Below are positions 33,266 through 46,393 of a DNA stretch of 64,000 bases, one piece after another. The stretch is from IMG/VR virus record IMGVR_UViG_3300002835_000018; one strand, given 5' to 3'. Position 1 is the stretch's first letter, and each line of letters starts with the position of its first letter. A program made the position numbers and the translations under genes. The stretch is from a virus. The notes below the pieces were generated by a model. The model was not told the DNA's origin. It made no database searches and saw only the letters and a list, made by a program, of their open reading frames with translations.

Positions 33266-33608
33266 GAACTATTCCGTTGATTAAACACCATTCTTTCTTC
33301 TTATTGTCATTCGCCTTTGATGCCAAAAAGTTTAGCTGTGTTCCATGAAAGAAAGGAACAAATTTGTAATGCTGTTCCCCATGAACTTCTATGATTTTAT
33401 TCCTTAATGGCAACCAAAAATCTGCGTACAAATTTCCAGATCCAGGCAAATGAACTTCTTCAAGTATTCTATCTACTGGATATAAAGATTTAAGCAACAC
33501 CCTAGTTCTTATGTGTAACTCCGATCTTTTTCTTTCATCGCTTATGTCTGGCATTTGACCATAAAATGACCAAGAGTGCATTCTTCCATCTAAACCTTTT
33601 ATTTTCAT
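33204..33608 (-). CDS. Restriction-endonuclease-like (DUF559-type) nuclease
   Basis: ADFWLP...IEVHGEQHY...DNKKKEWC. Confidence 0.7.
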   Translation of the reverse strand: MKIKGLDGRMHSWSFYGQMPDISDERKRSELHIRTRVLLKSLYPVDRILEEVHLPGSGNLYADFWLPLRNKIIEVHGEQHYKFVPFFHGTQLNFLASKANDNKKKEWCLINGIVLVELPFNESTEQWQSRIELD

Positions 33609-35596
33609 GATAAAAGACCTTTTATTTCTTGCTCAAGAACTTTTACCCATAAAGGATTTTCAAGCAGTAGCCTATAAAGCTTTTCTGCACCTTGGGTTTT
33701 AACTTTTCTTATTGTTGCATCATCCCATTCTTTTGAATCTAACAATTTTAAGTGCCTTTGCATAAAATCAAGTGTCATCCAAGCACCAGCTTTAGCTATA
33801 AGACCAAGTTGACAACCAAGATTTATGGCTTCATATGTATTATCAATACCAATGCCGTAACGAATATAGCTGTCAATTTCCATTCCTGGTGAACCTAAAG
33901 CACAAGATTCAATTAACCAATGAACCTGTTGTCCAATTTGTTTTTCTTTGCCTTCTATGCCAACATTCCAAGCTTTATCAAATTTAACTCTCATTTGAAC
34001 ATCTGCTTGATACTGCAATGTTCTAGAACCTTTTTCTGTATAACCACCATACATACCCTGAGATTGGGTTAAGTGCATAATCGCCCAAACAATACAGTTT
34101 TGTACTGGCACTATATTAGCTGCTTGTCTGCAAAAACCAGCAAAGAGCTTATTACCAGCCCCTCTATTTTCATACCCAATACCCTCATCCATTTCTTTTT
34201 CATCACATAGGGCAGAAACACTATCTATGATGATCAAACTTCCTGGATGCGTATTGATGGCTTTAAAAGCCAAATTTAGGTAGTCCTTTGCAGAAAGAAT
34301 CTTATCTTGAGTAGACCTATAGATTGTCATCTTGTCTAAATTTAAGCCAGCTATGCCCTTTAGATTCATAGGCTTCAATCGACCTTCAATGTTCAGATAA
34401 TACACATGTCTACCACCATTCTCAGGTTTTTGACATTGTGCAGCAAAAGAAAGTGAGGTTAATGTGTTATGTGTAACTATAAAGTTATTGGTTAAGTACA
34501 AACCATCTTTTGTGTTTATGGTAATACAAACACACTCTTCTTTTCTTACTTTTTTTACAGATATTATTTTTCTTTCAAATTTATTTTTTCTTTTTTGTAA
34601 AATGTTAAGTTTTAATATACAGACATATCTTTTTGAGTCTTTGTTCTTATGAACAGAATAGTTGCCTATTCCTCCCAAAGATTGCACCAATGTAACGATA
34701 TCTTCTGCAAGCCTTTGACTTGATACTGTAATAGTTAAGCTTTTATCTTTAGTTAAATATCCAGCAACTTTTAAAATACCAGTTATTAACCTTGTTCGAT
34801 TGTAAACGCCATCAAACAAATATTTTGGGGGAATAAACTTTTGGTTATTTGCAATATTAAAAAGCCCAAGCTTTATAAAAGGATTGGAATTTTTAGCAGA
34901 TATCTTTTTGGATTCATTGTCATAAACTATATATTTTTTATCGCTATCAGACATTTCATTCACAATATCTAAATCTTTTTCAAGAGTTACATATGTTGAA
35001 TTTTTTCCAAAAATTCCAGCACCAAGAAAAATGCCCATTATGTATGGGGAAATCTCTTTGGTTGTTTCATTAAACAATGCAGGAGTAGAAATTGGTATAG
35101 AATATTTTGCTACTTTTCCAGACTTGTAATAAATATCATTAATAAAATCTTTAAGTTGTCTAACAACAAAATCCTTATGATCTTTTGTTTTAATTGACCA
35201 AAGATGATCTAATCCGCACTCTGCAAATGTTCCATCAGAAAAACTTATTCGATAAACATCTTTAATTCCTTGTGGATAGATAGCGAGAATTTCTGCTGAA
35301 TTACCATCATGTGTACATACATGCTCGCCCAACATCAATTCACCAATTGGTTTAGGACCATTTGGAGTATAAACAAGAGCAGAAACAGGCTGTTCTTTTC
35401 CGCTTTTTGGATGACCAGAACATGTAACCCAAGAACCTTCTGGTATACCACCATGTAAACCAAGATTTAAAGCTGGAGAAAGCGGTATAACATGCTTTTC
35501 TTCATCTAGCAAATCGCTTGCGTTTATTGCAATACCATTACCATATTGCTTTGATACTTCTTTGATTATTTTTTCTACTTCATCACTCATTTTCAA
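33605..35596 (-). CDS. recA: RecA-family recombinase containing an intein
   Basis: LGLHGGIPEG, Walker A GHPKSGK/T, IIIDSVSAL, YIRYGIGID, AGAW. Confidence 0.9.
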   Translation of the reverse strand: MKMSDEVEKIIKEVSKQYGNGIAINASDLLDEEKHVIPLSPALNLGLHGGIPEGSWVTCSGHPKSGKEQPVSALVYTPNGPKPIGELMLGEHVCTHDGNSAEILAIYPQGIKDVYRISFSDGTFAECGLDHLWSIKTKDHKDFVVRQLKDFINDIYYKSGKVAKYSIPISTPALFNETTKEISPYIMGIFLGAGIFGKNSTYVTLEKDLDIVNEMSDSDKKYIVYDNESKKISAKNSNPFIKLGLFNIANNQKFIPPKYLFDGVYNRTRLITGILKVAGYLTKDKSLTITVSSQRLAEDIVTLVQSLGGIGNYSVHKNKDSKRYVCILKLNILQKRKNKFERKIISVKKVRKEECVCITINTKDGLYLTNNFIVTHNTLTSLSFAAQCQKPENGGRHVYYLNIEGRLKPMNLKGIAGLNLDKMTIYRSTQDKILSAKDYLNLAFKAINTHPGSLIIIDSVSALCDEKEMDEGIGYENRGAGNKLFAGFCRQAANIVPVQNCIVWAIMHLTQSQGMYGGYTEKGSRTLQYQADVQMRVKFDKAWNVGIEGKEKQIGQQVHWLIESCALGSPGMEIDSYIRYGIGIDNTYEAINLGCQLGLIAKAGAWMTLDFMQRHLKLLDSKEWDDATIRKVKTQGAEKLYRLLLENPLWVKVLEQEIKGLLS
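34466..35395 (-). mobile_element. Class 3 (WCT) intein, 310 aa, with degenerate LAGLIDADG domain
   Basis: Starts EQPVSALVYTPNG; block B DHLW; block F CVCITI; block G VTHN followed by Thr. Confidence 0.85.
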
Positions 35597-41579: not shown

Positions 41580-42470
41580 TTAAGAAAAAAGATAAGCATA
41601 TTCTGAATAATCACCCCAATATTCATTTGATTCAGAAAAAACTTTTTGAAAAGTTTGAAAATGTGATGTGAATGCATAACCGTGATTTATGTGAACTGAT
41701 GGGTTTTTACAGAACCAATCTTTGTTTTTCCAGTTTAATGGTGTAAAAGCAGCTTCTTTTGAATACCAAGGCTCTAAACTTCCAGAGTTTTTCAATAACG
41801 CATTTGGAAATATGTTTTCAAAATGTTTAATGGCACTAGTAAACTTCATGGTCACTTGAGATGTTGCCCTTGCTGCACCATTTTTAGGTTGCCAACCAGA
41901 AGAACACAATCCTATATAATTAGTGTTTGATATAGAATCGCATTCAAAATCATCATATTCAAAATATCCTTCTGGATAAAGGCAATCATGTTCTAAAAAA
42001 CTAACATATTTGACATTTGTTGAATTTTTTCTTACAAAATAAAGCAAATGCAATATTTGTAAAACTTGATTTAAATGATTACTATTCTTGGTTTGAGAAA
42101 TTATTTCGCAAAATGGATTTTCTGGTATTTTATTCCATACAGATGTAATTATTCTGGCTTTTTTTTCTGATGAAATAGCCAAACTTTTTAAACTGGCATA
42201 TAAAGCTTTTTCTTTTCTTGTATCATTGTTGTTTGTATAAAAAATACCAATTCTTTCATCAAAAATTTTTGGATAAATTAAAAATTCATTTTCATTTGTT
42301 TCTAGTTTAGAGCCATCGTCAAATTCAACAATTAACTTTTTTAATACGCCATGATTTGTGTCGCCAAAAATGGCGTTGGAAACATAAATATTTAAACTAT
42401 CGTCTTTGAAAACACTTGCGACATACTCCGTTACATCTTTTGGGCCATATGTAGCCTTAACTATTTTCAT
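41580..42470 (-). CDS. SUEL-lectin/DUF3395-like domain fused to a GT-A-like domain
   Basis: IVKATYG..DVT...N..FGD...GVLKKL; VSFLEHDCLY. Confidence 0.55.
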   Translation of the reverse strand: MKIVKATYGPKDVTEYVASVFKDDSLNIYVSNAIFGDTNHGVLKKLIVEFDDGSKLETNENEFLIYPKIFDERIGIFYTNNNDTRKEKALYASLKSLAISSEKKARIITSVWNKIPENPFCEIISQTKNSNHLNQVLQILHLLYFVRKNSTNVKYVSFLEHDCLYPEGYFEYDDFECDSISNTNYIGLCSSGWQPKNGAARATSQVTMKFTSAIKHFENIFPNALLKNSGSLEPWYSKEAAFTPLNWKNKDWFCKNPSVHINHGYAFTSHFQTFQKVFSESNEYWGDYSEYAYLFS

Positions 42471-42804
42471 TGTAAACCATATCTAAAAGCGAAACTATTT
42501 CATCAACAGACAAAGATTGCATCAACTCGACTATTGTATCAGATATGATCTTAGCATGTTCTTCTGAAACATTTGCTTTTATTATTTTATTGTATAAATT
42601 TCTTCTTATAAACATTCTTACTAAAGGACCGCCATTTTTAATTATTAAAGCAACACCTTTTTTAGAAGTGCAAAACTTAAGTATGCTAATTCCATCAACA
42701 ATAAATCCAACCAACATAATGATTGTTATGATTCCAATAGCATCGTAATTTTTTATTTTTTCTGATTTTTGTAAAATTGATTTTATTTTATCATGCGACC
42801 GCAT
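42457..42804 (-). CDS. Membrane protein
   Basis: One hydrophobic segment AIGIITIIMLVGFIV; start at 42804 (GGAGA RBS) or 42819. Confidence 0.55.
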   Translation of the reverse strand: MRSHDKIKSILQKSEKIKNYDAIGIITIIMLVGFIVDGISILKFCTSKKGVALIIKNGGPLVRMFIRRNLYNKIIKANVSEEHAKIISDTIVELMQSLSVDEIVSLLDMVYNENS

Positions 42805-42818
42805 TATTTTTTTCTCCA

Positions 42819-42962
42819 TCAGGTTAAACAGTGTTGTTGTTTTACTGTTTTTTTAATTTCTTCTATTAGTTTAGAAAATGAAATTGGGTCTTTTTCTATT
42901 AATATAAATTGCTCTTTGCTTATAGTTTGATTAAACAATAAAAAAAGCACTGAGTTTAACAT
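42819..42962 (-). CDS. Small protein (47 aa) ending CLT-TGA; not in ORF track
   Basis: MLNSVLFLLFNQTISKEQFILIEKDPISFSKLIEEIKKTVKQQHCLT fills the gap between two genes. Confidence 0.5.
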   Translation of the reverse strand: MLNSVLFLLFNQTISKEQFILIEKDPISFSKLIEEIKKTVKQQHCLT

Positions 42963-42965
42963 GAT

Positions 42966-43436
42966 TTACTTTTTGTTTTTTATAATGGATTGACTTGTTC
43001 TCATTGCCCATTCAATACCAGATGTTCCACCCCAACCTAGCCATGCAACTACTGCTGGAATAGTCCAAGGCTTAGTTTTATATTCTGGTTTAGATTTTGC
43101 TTTTTTATAATTAGATCCGTGTCTATTAAATTGAGCCATTCTTTTTACTGTGTCAGCAGACAACATAGCATTTCCAGCTAAGTCTCTTGCCCTAGCCCAA
43201 CCAACAGCGGTCATGCCTTTGCACTCTTTGCCGTATTTATCTTTCCACTCTAAAACTTTTCTTGCGTTATTTCTTGCTGATTGTGGGGCATCATAAGATT
43301 CTTTTCCTATAGAAAATTGTTTTAATTTTTGATTTTTATAAGCATTAGTGCTTAAGATTAAATCTTTAATTGAATTTAAAAATTCATTGTAATCTATTTG
43401 TTGTTTTAAATGTTCATCATCTTTTTTTTTAGACAT
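42966..43436 (-). CDS. Phage hypothetical protein (GWARA/WGG domain)
   Basis: ARNNARK..W...G.TAVGWARA..LA...TVKRM..F.RH...AWLGWGG, a pattern recalled from phage proteins. Confidence 0.55.
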   Translation of the reverse strand: MSKKKDDEHLKQQIDYNEFLNSIKDLILSTNAYKNQKLKQFSIGKESYDAPQSARNNARKVLEWKDKYGKECKGMTAVGWARARDLAGNAMLSADTVKRMAQFNRHGSNYKKAKSKPEYKTKPWTIPAVVAWLGWGGTSGIEWAMRTSQSIIKNKK

Positions 43437-43445
43437 TTTTAAATC

Positions 43446-45446
43446 CTATATAAGCATGAATAGTTTTTTGTCAATTAGCTGTTCTGGAAATCCATCAAAA
43501 TTACTATATGCAAAAGTTTCGCCAGCCCTAATATGTTTTTCAGCATCTTTCTTCCTAACCCTGAGAACACCTATAGGAAGATTATCGCCAGTATCAAAGT
43601 CTTTAAGGTGACCATGAGCATCGCCCCAACTATTAACAATAATTGCATATGGGTCTTTAGCCCTATCATCAACGCCTATGAAGCACATTTGATGGCCCCA
43701 ATTATCTGTCTGGCTATGAAACCCATCAGATTCTGGTTCCATTTCATATCCTACATCACTAGCAGTGGTGCAAGGATATCCATTAACAATAGCCTCAACC
43801 AATTGATCCCAACTTTTAATTTTCGCAGCAGACTTTACTGGGTGTTTAGTTCCTTCTTCAATAAACTTTTTATCTGGTCCTGGCGTATCACCCCATTTTT
43901 TAGCTACGCTTCCAGCATACTTAGGAACACCATCAAAACCACTACGCAAAACCCCATATTTAATAACAGCATCTGCCATCCAACTCCCAAGAGAACCATC
44001 TTCACCATTCAATTGTCCACGACCAACAAGAACTCTTCCTGTTCCATAAAGATATGGAGGAAAGACAGGTTCAAATTTTTCGTGATCGCCTTTCATAAGT
44101 TTTTCAGTAGCCATTAAGTATTCAACAGCATTTTTAGCACCAAAACTTACACAGTTATGTTGAGCAATACCATTAGCTATTAAAGTATGCTCTCCTTCAA
44201 CAGTAATACAAAAAACTGGAAAGTCTGAAACTTGTTTTCTAGATATGTTAGTTATCTTTCTGGCAAAACCAAATGGTGTTTTATGGATCTTTAATGCTTT
44301 GGGTTTGGTTACTTCATATGCACCTAAAGATAATGCATCAAAACCATATAGATCCATTTGACCAGCAGCAACAGTTTGATGAGAAGCTTTCTTTCTTTTT
44401 AATGTCATAGGGTTAAGATTACAAGACAAGCATAATCTAGATAAATCATTCAACAAAGAATCAGATGCTGTTACCCCAATAATTCTTGTTGCTCTTTTAC
44501 TAAAATGACCATCTCCATCTATCCATCCTCTAATGCAAGATATCTTTACAGTTAATGGGCTATTAAATATAAAAGATGGAACTGTTTTAGAGTAAGTATT
44601 ATTGGGAATTAACTGCTTAATAAAAGTAGCTAATTTTGTGTTATGTATTTCTACTAACAAAACATTTTGTTTTTTCTTGTGGTAATATTTTTTAGCTTCT
44701 AATCCAAATACATTTTTAGTTATAGCTATAATTTCTTCCGCAAAAAGTTCTTCATTAATGTTAAAATTAAATGTTATTTTATTGTATTTGCCATTAATAG
44801 CTGTTTTAGTCTTAGAACAACCACCTTCTGCTAAATATAAACCTATAAATCTTGCAAGATTTTCGTCTACCTTTATAGATTTTCCATTAAAACCTATGTG
44901 TTGATATTCAGAAGATTGAACACCAAAAGGCAAAAGAAGATAGTCACCTTTAGAATAGTCTTTAAATTTCTTTTTTCCAAAACCATCAAATTTAAATCTA
45001 TATCCATTATATGGCATAAATAAAGCATCATGCGTTTCTGTTGCGGTTATAGTGCGATTCCAACCCTTAACCTTTAAGGTAACTAGATCGCCAGTAAATC
45101 GTTTGCGAACTAGTCCTATAACTTTTCTAGGCTGGTTTATATGATTTAGTACATACTCGCCTTCAGATATATCTTCTACGCTCTTCTCTGTACCATCAGC
45201 CATGCAAACTTTAGTACCAGCCACATAACAATCACCAATCTCTTGAGCGTAATTAGGCGTATCATTACCAAGCACTTTACGAACAACATCGTACAACATC
45301 ATCTTTTTGCCTTTAGTGTCTTGGCTTTTGCCATAAACATTAAAGTCTCTAAATGATCCATTATCTTTGATTAAATTAAATTCACTTTCAACAAGCGAAG
45401 GATTGTCTTTTCCTGCCCAACCATTAATCTTTGATAGTTCAAACAT
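43446..45446 (-). CDS. Papain-like (C1) cysteine peptidase containing an intein
   Basis: QEIGD/CVSFG (oxyanion Gln and catalytic Cys), WGHQMCFIG (His), IVNSWG (Asn). Confidence 0.85.
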   Translation of the reverse strand: MFELSKINGWAGKDNPSLVESEFNLIKDNGSFRDFNVYGKSQDTKGKKMMLYDVVRKVLGNDTPNYAQEIGDCYVAGTKVCMADGTEKSVEDISEGEYVLNHINQPRKVIGLVRKRFTGDLVTLKVKGWNRTITATETHDALFMPYNGYRFKFDGFGKKKFKDYSKGDYLLLPFGVQSSEYQHIGFNGKSIKVDENLARFIGLYLAEGGCSKTKTAINGKYNKITFNFNINEELFAEEIIAITKNVFGLEAKKYYHKKKQNVLLVEIHNTKLATFIKQLIPNNTYSKTVPSFIFNSPLTVKISCIRGWIDGDGHFSKRATRIIGVTASDSLLNDLSRLCLSCNLNPMTLKRKKASHQTVAAGQMDLYGFDALSLGAYEVTKPKALKIHKTPFGFARKITNISRKQVSDFPVFCITVEGEHTLIANGIAQHNCVSFGAKNAVEYLMATEKLMKGDHEKFEPVFPPYLYGTGRVLVGRGQLNGEDGSLGSWMADAVIKYGVLRSGFDGVPKYAGSVAKKWGDTPGPDKKFIEEGTKHPVKSAAKIKSWDQLVEAIVNGYPCTTASDVGYEMEPESDGFHSQTDNWGHQMCFIGVDDRAKDPYAIIVNSWGDAHGHLKDFDTGDNLPIGVLRVRKKDAEKHIRAGETFAYSNFDGFPEQLIDKKLFMLI
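44154..45230 (-). mobile_element. Class 1 intein, 359 aa, with apparently intact LAGLIDADG homing endonuclease
   Basis: CYVAGTKV start; TETH block B; FIGLYLAEG and IRGWIDGDG; ends ANGIAQHN followed by Cys. Confidence 0.95.
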
Positions 45447-45453
45447 GTTTCAC

Positions 45454-46233
45454 CTATTTTATTGATTTAAGTCCAAATGATATTTCTCTCCACGCAATAG
45501 CAAAATCTTCTTTGGTTTGCATTTTACTAGTTTTATATAAATCAAAAAGCTTTTCTTGTATTTCTGTAAATAATGGTTCCCACTTTGTTCTATCTCCACC
45601 AGATTTTGTTAATGCTAATTTATTTGATTCTGCGGTTTTTTTCAGTATGTCTTCAAGTGTTGCAATTGTTCCAGCAGCAATAGCAGCAGCCATACTATCA
45701 AAAGATGTTGCAATAGCAGTAGATTGTTTTATCTTATCTGTTTTTGATAGCTTGATATTTTTAACAGAATCATAAACAAATTTAGAAAGTTGATATTTTG
45801 ACTCTCCAAATTCTGGTTCAACTTCTGGCTCTGATGGAGTATCAGGTTCTGGTTCGCCAATAAAAACATCTGTTGAAATAAAATTGGTTCTAGTGGCTGC
45901 TTCTAAAAGTTTTTCATTATCTTTAACTACATATAAATGCGTTATTGAAACAATAACTTTAAGTCTTTTTGCTTGTATACCAGAACCAAAGAAAACGCCA
46001 TTTTCATAGTTACGAATTCTTTTTTCTGTATAACCATCAAAAACTTTCCATGCGTATGTGGTTGAAACTAAAAACTTTGGTGCGGATTGAATTGGGCTTA
46101 TAGACAAATCTACAAGCTCACCTAATGGAATAGGAACTTCTGCCCCAATAATTTTTTGTTCTGGAATTATAAAGTTTTCTGCAAAAGTAAAATTGCAAAA
46201 CACCAACAAAAAAAACAGCGATTTCTTAAACAT
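45454..46233 (-). CDS. Secreted protein with signal peptide and Pro/Glu linker
   Basis: MFKKSLFFLLVFCNFTFA signal; EPEPDTPSEPEVEPE linker. Confidence 0.65.
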   Translation of the reverse strand: MFKKSLFFLLVFCNFTFAENFIIPEQKIIGAEVPIPLGELVDLSISPIQSAPKFLVSTTYAWKVFDGYTEKRIRNYENGVFFGSGIQAKRLKVIVSITHLYVVKDNEKLLEAATRTNFISTDVFIGEPEPDTPSEPEVEPEFGESKYQLSKFVYDSVKNIKLSKTDKIKQSTAIATSFDSMAAAIAAGTIATLEDILKKTAESNKLALTKSGGDRTKWEPLFTEIQEKLFDLYKTSKMQTKEDFAIAWREISFGLKSIK

Positions 46234-46249
46234 GTTAATTTCCTATAAT

Positions 46250-46393
46250 TTACTTATTGGTTTTATCAATAAAACATTCTTTACTATGCTTATGTTTTTT
46301 TAAACTATCTGAAACATAAAACAATACAAATATTATTGCTAAAATAATAGCTATTACAACATTAGAAACAAATTTAACTAGAAACTTAAACAC
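46250..46393 (-). CDS. Small single-TM protein (47 aa, not in ORF track)
   Basis: GTG start overlaps the upstream TAG; MFKFLVKFVSNVVIAIILAIIFVLFYVSDSLKKHKH... Confidence 0.5.
   Translation of the reverse strand: MFKFLVKFVSNVVIAIILAIIFVLFYVSDSLKKHKHSKECFIDKTNK

Follow-up and report, generated by a model that had tools for sequence, protein, structure and literature searches.

The window analysed here, a 64,000-nucleotide stretch of the IMG/VR virus record IMGVR_UViG_3300002835_000018, carries on its minus strand a 666-amino-acid (aa) open reading frame (ORF; 43446..45446) that is open throughout and in which a papain-like peptidase is interrupted by an intein directly before its catalytic Cys. 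This arrangement raises the question of whether the intein serves the enzyme as an activation gate or is merely lodged in its active site. The product is very probably the precursor of a xylellain-type peptidase that is split between Asp72 and the catalytic Cys by a mobile LAGLIDADG intein, the latter being a selfish passenger and not a regulator.

The insert comprises 359 aa (CYVAG...AQHN; 44154..45230, minus strand), and its assignment draws on Pfam, sequence matches in PDB, a model of the precursor and the absence of the insert from a closely related contig. Three Pfam families matched it, LAGLIDADG_3 (E-value 9e-10), Hom_end_hint (2e-8) and Intein_splicing (1.5e-6), and the sequence matches in PDB were PI-PkoII and PI-SceI. 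All splicing blocks are present. The N-terminal splicing region (44916..45230, minus strand), recognised by its conserved blocks A and B, includes Cys1 of block A (45228-45230) and the block B motif TETH (45030-45041), whose T136 and H139 do not vary among 42 relatives. The C-terminal splicing region (44154..44300, minus strand) includes block F with Cys341 (intein residue 341, position F:4, in VFCITV; 44208-44210), followed by the penultimate His and terminal Asn (44154-44159), and the insert is followed by a Cys at position +1. Between these regions lies the LAGLIDADG endonuclease domain (44301..44915, minus strand) with motifs at 44826-44864 and 44505-44540, both of which keep their acidic residues (GLYLAEGG and GWIDGDGH). 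The AlphaFold model of the full-length precursor has a mean predicted local distance difference test (pLDDT) score of 83.8, the two junctions being the only parts of low confidence. In a Foldseek search, this model matched the TliVMA intein (7qsu, E-value 4e-21, target template modelling (TM) score 0.79) and PI-SceI (5e-17), and further structural matches were PhoVMA, PI-PkoII and PI-PfuI. As modelled, the insert is an intein with a HINT fold and a nested two-motif LAGLIDADG domain of the VMA-like type.

The flanking sequences join without interruption in relatives. A search with the C-terminal part of the host protein (the C-extein) retrieved 304 relatives of 129-412 aa, mostly of 300-330 aa. 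The best of these, P0001, is 92% identical and lacks an intein; it is exactly 307 aa long, which corresponds to the 72 and 235 aa of the two exteins, and its QEIGD-CVSFG sequence is unbroken. When the precursor was aligned with 11 intein-less homologues, the whole insert formed a single gap between D72 and C432. As judged by these alignments, the insert is a real in-frame insertion and not a chance pattern. According to translation and alignment, the N-extein occupies 45231..45446 (72 aa, minus strand) and ends in QEIGD with Asp72 as the -1 residue, and the C-extein occupies 43449..44153 (235 aa, minus strand), starts with CVSFG and is followed by a stop codon at 43446-43448.

Four residues expected for a C1 peptidase are invariant in the alignment with the 11 homologues, namely the oxyanion-hole Gln68 in the N-extein (45243-45245), Cys432 (44151-44153), His585 of the GHQM motif (43692-43694) and Asn605 of the NSWG motif (43632-43634), all on the minus strand. 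The structure of the intein-less homologue P0001, predicted from an alignment of 56 sequences, has a pLDDT of 88.9 and a predicted TM score of 0.90, and its long helix formed by residues 73-96 starts at Cys73. The top Foldseek matches listed for this model were all C1 enzymes or C1 zymogens. Comparison by VIA-align with xylellain, cathepsins and papain gave Z scores of 16-19.7, the highest being for xylellain (3ois, Z 19.7, 238 residues aligned), followed by Schistosoma mansoni procathepsin B (Z 18), and pro-Der p 1, falcipains and papain were matched as well. Residues 1-212 of mature papain cover model residues 44-291; the preceding residues 4-43 correspond in the alignment to the pro-regions of xylellain and the procathepsins. 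Hence, the enzyme may also have a short, occluding N-terminal segment resembling a pro-region.

The register of the active site was fixed by sequence comparison with more distant proteins. Alignment of the family profile with cathepsin H matches the His of HQM to the catalytic His of that enzyme and the NSWG motifs of the two to each other. The homologue P0195 (32% identity, E-value 2e-30) reads QGQVGSC-VSFG at the site of insertion and is recognised by the papain family model PF00112 with 29 bits over profile positions 13-195; for P0195 and P0196 together, the scores are 26-29 bits over nearly the whole profile. As P0195 bridges the two groups, Cys73 of P0001, which is Cys432 of the precursor, corresponds to Cys25 of papain and Gln68 to Gln19. 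Cys432 is thus both the catalytic Cys, as indicated by alignment and homologue model, and the +1 nucleophile of the intein. Set against this assignment is the borderline score of the window exteins themselves with PF00112, 21.0-21.8 bits at a cut-off of 20.7 and confined to the half containing the His and Asn. In PHROGs, the peptidase gave a weak 'peptidase' match only (phrog_16701, E-value 0.02), and NCBIfam gave no match for the peptidase or its neighbours. On the strength of the model and the invariant residues, the exteins make up a cysteine peptidase of the papain family (C1-like) and of the xylellain type, encoded by an uncultured tailed phage and with a predicted function in proteolysis.

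The original prediction, made from the nucleotide sequence, had placed a 359-aa intein at 44154-45230 between QEIGD and CVSFG, and these coordinates were borne out to the base by translation, by the alignment, in which the site was confirmed, and by the DNA of the intein-less contig L011. Its reading of the exteins as a C1 peptidase with a Gln, a Cys, the His of GHQM and the Asn of NSWG agrees with the invariance of these residues and the papain fold of the P0001 model, a fold on which that reading had been made to depend and which is matched to xylellain with a Z score of 19.7. The proposed identity of the catalytic Cys with the +1 residue, with the oxyanion Gln on the other extein, likewise held in the alignment and in the register given by P0195, and both LAGLIDADG motifs are intact, as had been stated.

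Among known enzymes, xylellain of Xylella fastidiosa (3OIS) is the best structural match, including the N-terminal segment, and the layout of the Q, C, H and N-S-W-G elements agrees. The two proteins differ in that they share only about 15% identity and that the window gene is part of a conserved set of phage genes, others of which encode exported and membrane proteins. For tailed phages of the Myoviridae and Siphoviridae, an account that does not mention inteins reports the horizontal acquisition of short xylellain-type C1A peptidases (PMC10380794). When the C-extein was compared by tblastn with 50,697 deposited phage genomes, no match was found, and the present family seems to be absent from the cultured phages of that collection.

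After translation, the intein would excise itself by the established intein mechanism. Splicing would probably begin at Cys1 by an N-S acyl shift, in which Cys341 would help or act as an acyl relay; Cys+1 would then attack the thioester, Asn359 would cyclise, and an S-N shift would restore QEIGD-CVSFG. Only then would the Gln and the catalytic Cys be united in a single chain where the central helix begins, facing His585 and Asn605. Because the +1 residue is the catalytic Cys and the oxyanion Gln belongs to the other extein, no active site can be assembled in the precursor, and we infer that the same Cys would serve first in transesterification and later in catalysis. The freed intein would cut intein-less alleles in co-infecting relatives and copy itself into them (homing).

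This sequence of events bears on the further proposal that the precursor is a splicing-activated zymogen whose activation could be made redox- or metal-sensitive by Cys1, the block-F Cys and Cys+1. The first part stands to the extent that activity must await splicing, as it must for any intein in an active site, and a regulatory gate is not indicated. In its specific form, such a gate would consist of disulfides or a bound metal among Cys1, Cys341 and Cys+1, holding back splicing until released under reducing conditions. The three cysteines do meet at the splicing centre, redox- and zinc-sensitive splicing is documented for mycobacterial DnaB inteins (PMC6195587, PMC7360933), and a delay could matter if the enzyme is a lysis factor.

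The distribution of the intein argues otherwise. The IMG/VR contig L011 (109.7 kb) is colinear with the window and ~93% identical to it over 17 kb, and the intein is missing from it precisely, window position 45229 being joined to 44155. L037 and L039 carry the same intein, with 97% and 86% aa identity, respectively. The extein flanks of L039 are shared with the intein-less L045, and those of the window and L037 with the intein-less L011 and L009; alleles with and without the intein therefore occur in at least two backgrounds. In the peptidase family as a whole, about 60 of about 380 clusters formed at 90% identity are occupied, i.e. roughly one in six, and among the IMG/VR loci 4 of 70.

Where present, the intein is maintained. 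Ratios of nonsynonymous to synonymous substitution rates (dN/dS), calculated for the window copy against L039 and L037, are 0.00-0.10 in the N-terminal splicing part, 0.10-0.11 in the endonuclease part and 0.17-0.19 in the C-terminal part, with 0.07-0.16 in the exteins. As judged by these values, both the splicing and the endonuclease functions are under purifying selection. It is highly improbable, then, that the intein is a decaying relic in the gene of a dead peptidase, a reading that is opposed by the open 666-codon frame, the intact splicing blocks and LAGLIDADG motifs, the intact catalytic residues of the exteins, and dN/dS of about 0.1 in the intein as well as the low values in the exteins.

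An evolved gate is also improbable, if less so. It does not fit an intein that most family members and the ~93% identical sister genome lack and whose endonuclease is kept under purifying selection, nor the retention of Cys341 in relatives that drop Cys1 or the presence of inteins of other families at two other active-site positions. The suggested redox or metal sensitivity thus found no support, given that the intein is optional, its endonuclease selected and its F:4 Cys invariant throughout the lineage. Most likely, the intein is a selfish homing passenger held in an invariant active-site sequence, and not an evolved regulator or built-in switch, since it is optional between near-identical genomes and sporadic, its endonuclease is kept, and relatives carry other inteins at catalytic sites. 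Sporadic occupation of a conserved active-site sequence at multiple sites is a known pattern of homing inteins (PMC5050341, PMC4760082).

The other sites became apparent in a search limited to proteins of 366-1166 aa, which yielded 76 further relatives, and were mapped on the numbering of P0001. Site a, QEIGD/C73 at the catalytic Cys, is occupied in about 49 proteins by full-size (~350-384 aa) or mini (118-157 aa) inteins. Site b, WGHQM/C229, lies three residues past the catalytic His and is occupied alone in 11 proteins and together with site a in 5. The inteins at this site (in P0131, P0135, P0136, P0147, P0163, P0164 and others, including L055:8190-9941 and L056) also precede a Cys+1, and they belong to a different family with VYN[FL]EV in block F and HN at the end. 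Site c, N-x-W-x-D/C251, five residues past the catalytic Asn, is occupied in two proteins, P0150 and P0153, by an intein of ~349 aa that ends in GN/C; each of the two proteins has in addition an intein starting with Pro (Pro1) at site a.

An exhaustive phmmer search with the window intein gave 3957 matches with E-values of 0.001 or less, 122 of them at 1e-30 or less. Among the best 150 matches were 142 new proteins, and 94 of these are hosts from the same peptidase family. Half of the other hosts tested (4/8) are more distant PF00112-positive proteins with an intein before a Cys. These four, P0268, P0292, P0307 and P0318, are ~640-710 aa long and have the related LAGLIDADG intein near the N-terminus, with junctions such as HN/CEGHAH, HN/CQGHAL and HN/CVGHGS and with Asn or Asp at F:4. 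Going by these junctions, where the +1 Cys is presumably the catalytic one, intein insertion at the catalytic-Cys site seems to extend to a broader set of C1-like peptidases.

The conservation of Cys341 raises the separate question of how the window intein splices. Position F:4 was set against the MP-Be DnaB intein (Cys320...Asn341, with Lys before and Ile after the Cys; PMC2807308) and against a class 3 intein in the same window (CVCITI...VTHN/T). A Cys occupies F:4 in all 44 parsed site-a inteins of the first set and in 32 of 35 parsed representatives, and it is invariant across 42 aligned sequences, unlike residue 1 and the terminal Asn. Residue 1 in the 44 inteins is Cys in 27, Pro in 16 and Ala in one. 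In related inteins of other host proteins (n=67), F:4 is Asn in 44, Asp in 19 and Cys in 2. A requirement for Cys at F:4 merely because the +1 residue is a catalytic Cys was rejected, as the related inteins of the distant C1 hosts, which precede a presumably catalytic Cys, have Asn or Asp there. The pattern suggests that, throughout this lineage, the F:4 Cys functions within the splicing centre, as an acyl relay or a class-3-like nucleophile, and a catalytic role of the latter kind would account for its conservation more readily than redox sensing.

Maximum-likelihood analysis, with midpoint rooting only, grouped the Pro1 inteins in a single clade of 14 members nested among Cys1 inteins. All Pro1 and Ala1 members lie, together with the window intein, in a well-supported clade (100/98), and P0161 (Pro1) and P0162 (Cys1) are near neighbours. 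The Pro1 inteins are probably functional because their endonuclease motifs, the Thr and His of block B, the F:4 Cys, the +1 Cys and the Q, C, H and N of their exteins stay invariant. In many of them, the block-F His, the penultimate His and the terminal Asn are replaced (Tyr/Phe-Gln).

From these data, class-3-like chemistry can be considered, in which Cys341 would attack the N-terminal junction to form the first branched thioester, Cys1 would be redundant or accessory, and the lineage would bridge classes 1 and 3. The lineage-wide Cys at F:4 over a variable position 1 (Cys, Pro or Ala), the nesting of Pro1 among Cys1 inteins with P0161 and P0162 as near neighbours, the splicing, endonuclease and extein catalytic residues kept by Pro1 members, and the N or D at F:4 in 63 of 67 related inteins of other hosts all speak for it, as does the prototype of class 3, MP-Be DnaB, which works with Pro1 and an F:4 Cys (PMC2807308). 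However, neither the Trp at B:12 nor the Thr at G:5 of class 3 was found in any parsed site-a intein, B:12 being Ala or Gly and G:5 Gln, Val or others, and Trp67 is essential in MP-Be (PMC2807308). Cys1 is also kept across most of the deep tree, which argues for its use, the Pro1 and Ala1 members could instead employ direct attack by Cys+1 (class 2, KlbA type), and the root of the tree is a midpoint root only.

The window intein starts with Cys and so differs from class 3 inteins, which have no nucleophile at position 1. A class 1 start at Cys1 is therefore somewhat favoured for the window copy because Cys1 has long been retained. What weighs on the other side is that Cys341 is more conserved than Cys1, which leaves the first nucleophile uncertain. 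That Cys341 is an obligate nucleophile is rather doubtful, and the class-3-like chemistry as a whole is no more probable. If the block-F Cys is nonetheless the first nucleophile in use, the inteins at the catalytic-Cys site, as one homologous lineage, would form a natural intermediate series, with class 3 arising from class 1 by divergence at one site and with a dual-nucleophile window copy, a reading that is likewise rather doubtful; an origin of class 3 by such divergence was judged implausible by Beyer et al. 2020 (PMC7664689).

In its architecture, the window intein resembles the VMA1-type inteins (PI-SceI 1vde/1ef0, TliVMA 7qsu/7qss, PhoVMA 7qst, PI-PkoII 2cw7), having a HINT domain split by a two-motif LAGLIDADG domain and sharing Cys1, the TxxH of block B, the terminal His-Asn and Cys+1. 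It differs from them in the F:4 residue, which is Cys here and Asp, Asn or Gly there, and in its host, a phage papain-family peptidase whose catalytic nucleophile is the +1 Cys. In VMA1, the +1 Cys also lies within a functional element of the host, the nucleotide-binding loop. With the class 3 (WCT) intein MP-Be 'DnaB', the window intein shares the F:4 Cys in a C-I-T context, and Pro is the first residue of its close relatives at this site, as it is in MP-Be; unlike class 3 inteins, the window copy lacks Trp B:12 and Thr G:5, has Cys rather than Ser/Thr at +1, and retains Cys1 and the penultimate His (PMC2807308).

The inteins of mycobacteriophages (Kelley et al. 2016, PMC5050341) are similar in occupying several independent sites in the functional centre of one protein, in the mixture of class 1 and non-class-1 members and in the logic of an active endonuclease, but their hosts are terminase, helicase, nucleotidyltransferase and others, with no peptidase listed. 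Precursors of proteases are interrupted by inteins in chloroplast ClpP of Chlamydomonas eugametos and in archaeal LonB (PMC4760082). In contrast to the present enzyme, these are serine, ATP-dependent proteases, LonB is listed as a host of the P-loop nucleoside triphosphatase type, and a catalytic nucleophile as the +1 residue is not reported there for either; insertion at catalytic residues was described as rare in the same large survey (PMC4760082). No published intein in a papain-family or other cysteine peptidase was found in the literature searched, outside which most subscription journals lie.

The catalogue of inteins thus gains a large unannotated host family, the xylellain-type cysteine peptidases of phages, probably those of Planctomycetota, and this peptidase family lies outside the usual replication and packaging hosts. 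As the Cys, His and Asn positions each drew separate inteins, the family offers a clean natural system for asking why inteins settle in active sites. The invariant F:4 Cys combined with transitions from Cys1 to Pro1 provides ready-made material on the evolution of class 3 splicing, and for protein engineering, a protease that cannot be active before splicing offers a natural starting point for splicing-activated proteases.

The IMG/VR virus contig from which the window comes is 111,606 bp long, has an estimated completeness of 74% and gives a single PF00112 match, and genes for a ribonucleotide reductase, ThyX and a glycosyltransferase are among the neighbours of the peptidase gene. Immediately upstream, at 45454..46233 (minus strand), lies a partner gene for a 259-aa protein with a signal-peptide-like N-terminus, a possible Ig/PKD-like domain (a weak lead) and a helical C-terminal part; an Atlas search with this protein returned only sub-threshold PKD/Ig-like leads. 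The partner gene holds this position in 61 of 70 IMG/VR loci, down to 28% identity. Further upstream, at 46250..46393 (minus strand), a hydropathy scan indicated a 47-aa single-pass membrane protein that is holin-like by position only, and an equivalent small transmembrane ORF is present in L023 and L065. Downstream of the peptidase gene, at 42457..42819 (minus strand), hydropathy and recurring gene order define a 120-aa membrane protein as part of the same cassette, and a similar arrangement recurs in diverged loci, where further small exported proteins are encoded as well. The distant homologues at L065:7887-9098 and L068:7776-8864 have a hydrophobic anchor of their own at the N-terminus, which the window enzyme does not have; by their sequences, they are exported or membrane-tethered forms.

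Cellular homologues, searched for in one genome per species of 185,579 species, were found at 49 loci (L073-L121), almost all in Planctomycetota, and the locus in Schlesneria is phage-like, being adjoined by a phage helicase and an HNH endonuclease. No match to the three lysin families tried, Phage_lysozyme (PF00959), Amidase_2 (PF01510) and SLT (PF01464), was found in the 111.6-kb, ~74% complete record. Because of the conserved exported/membrane cassette, the anchored homologues, the Planctomycetota loci and the lack of a lysin match, it is quite possible, if short of probable, that the peptidase acts on the cell envelope, perhaps as a lysis enzyme for Planctomycetota hosts. Several points count against such a role. 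Lysis is suggested by nothing beyond gene order and hydropathy, the portion absent from the record might encode a conventional lysin, and the G+C content of the phage is ~30% as against 54-73% in the Planctomycetota loci.

Two local differences were noted next to the peptidase gene. The two genes downstream of it (42457-43436) are only 75-79% identical to their counterparts in L011 and L037, whereas genes farther away are 95-100% identical, so that a local mosaic patch adjoins the intein-bearing gene. In L011 (8924-9374), L001 and L006, about 430-450 extra bases separate the peptidase gene from the next gene (the homologue of 42966-43436), a stretch that is absent from the window (43409-43446) and from L021.

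The class 3 intein used above for the F:4 register is the second intein in the window. It is 310 aa long (34466-35395, minus strand) and, as read from the sequence, interrupts the Walker A motif (GHPKSGK/.../T) of a RecA-like gene within the ORF at 33605-35596. It was missed by Pfam (E-value of 0.001 or less) and by a scan of the record with PF14890, which detected the peptidase intein alone. The PHROG 'terminase/primase' matches of this ORF were rejected as evidence of a P-loop domain because the sequence reads as a class 3 intein, starting with Glu and having the complete class 3 signature of DHLW, CVCITI and VTHN.

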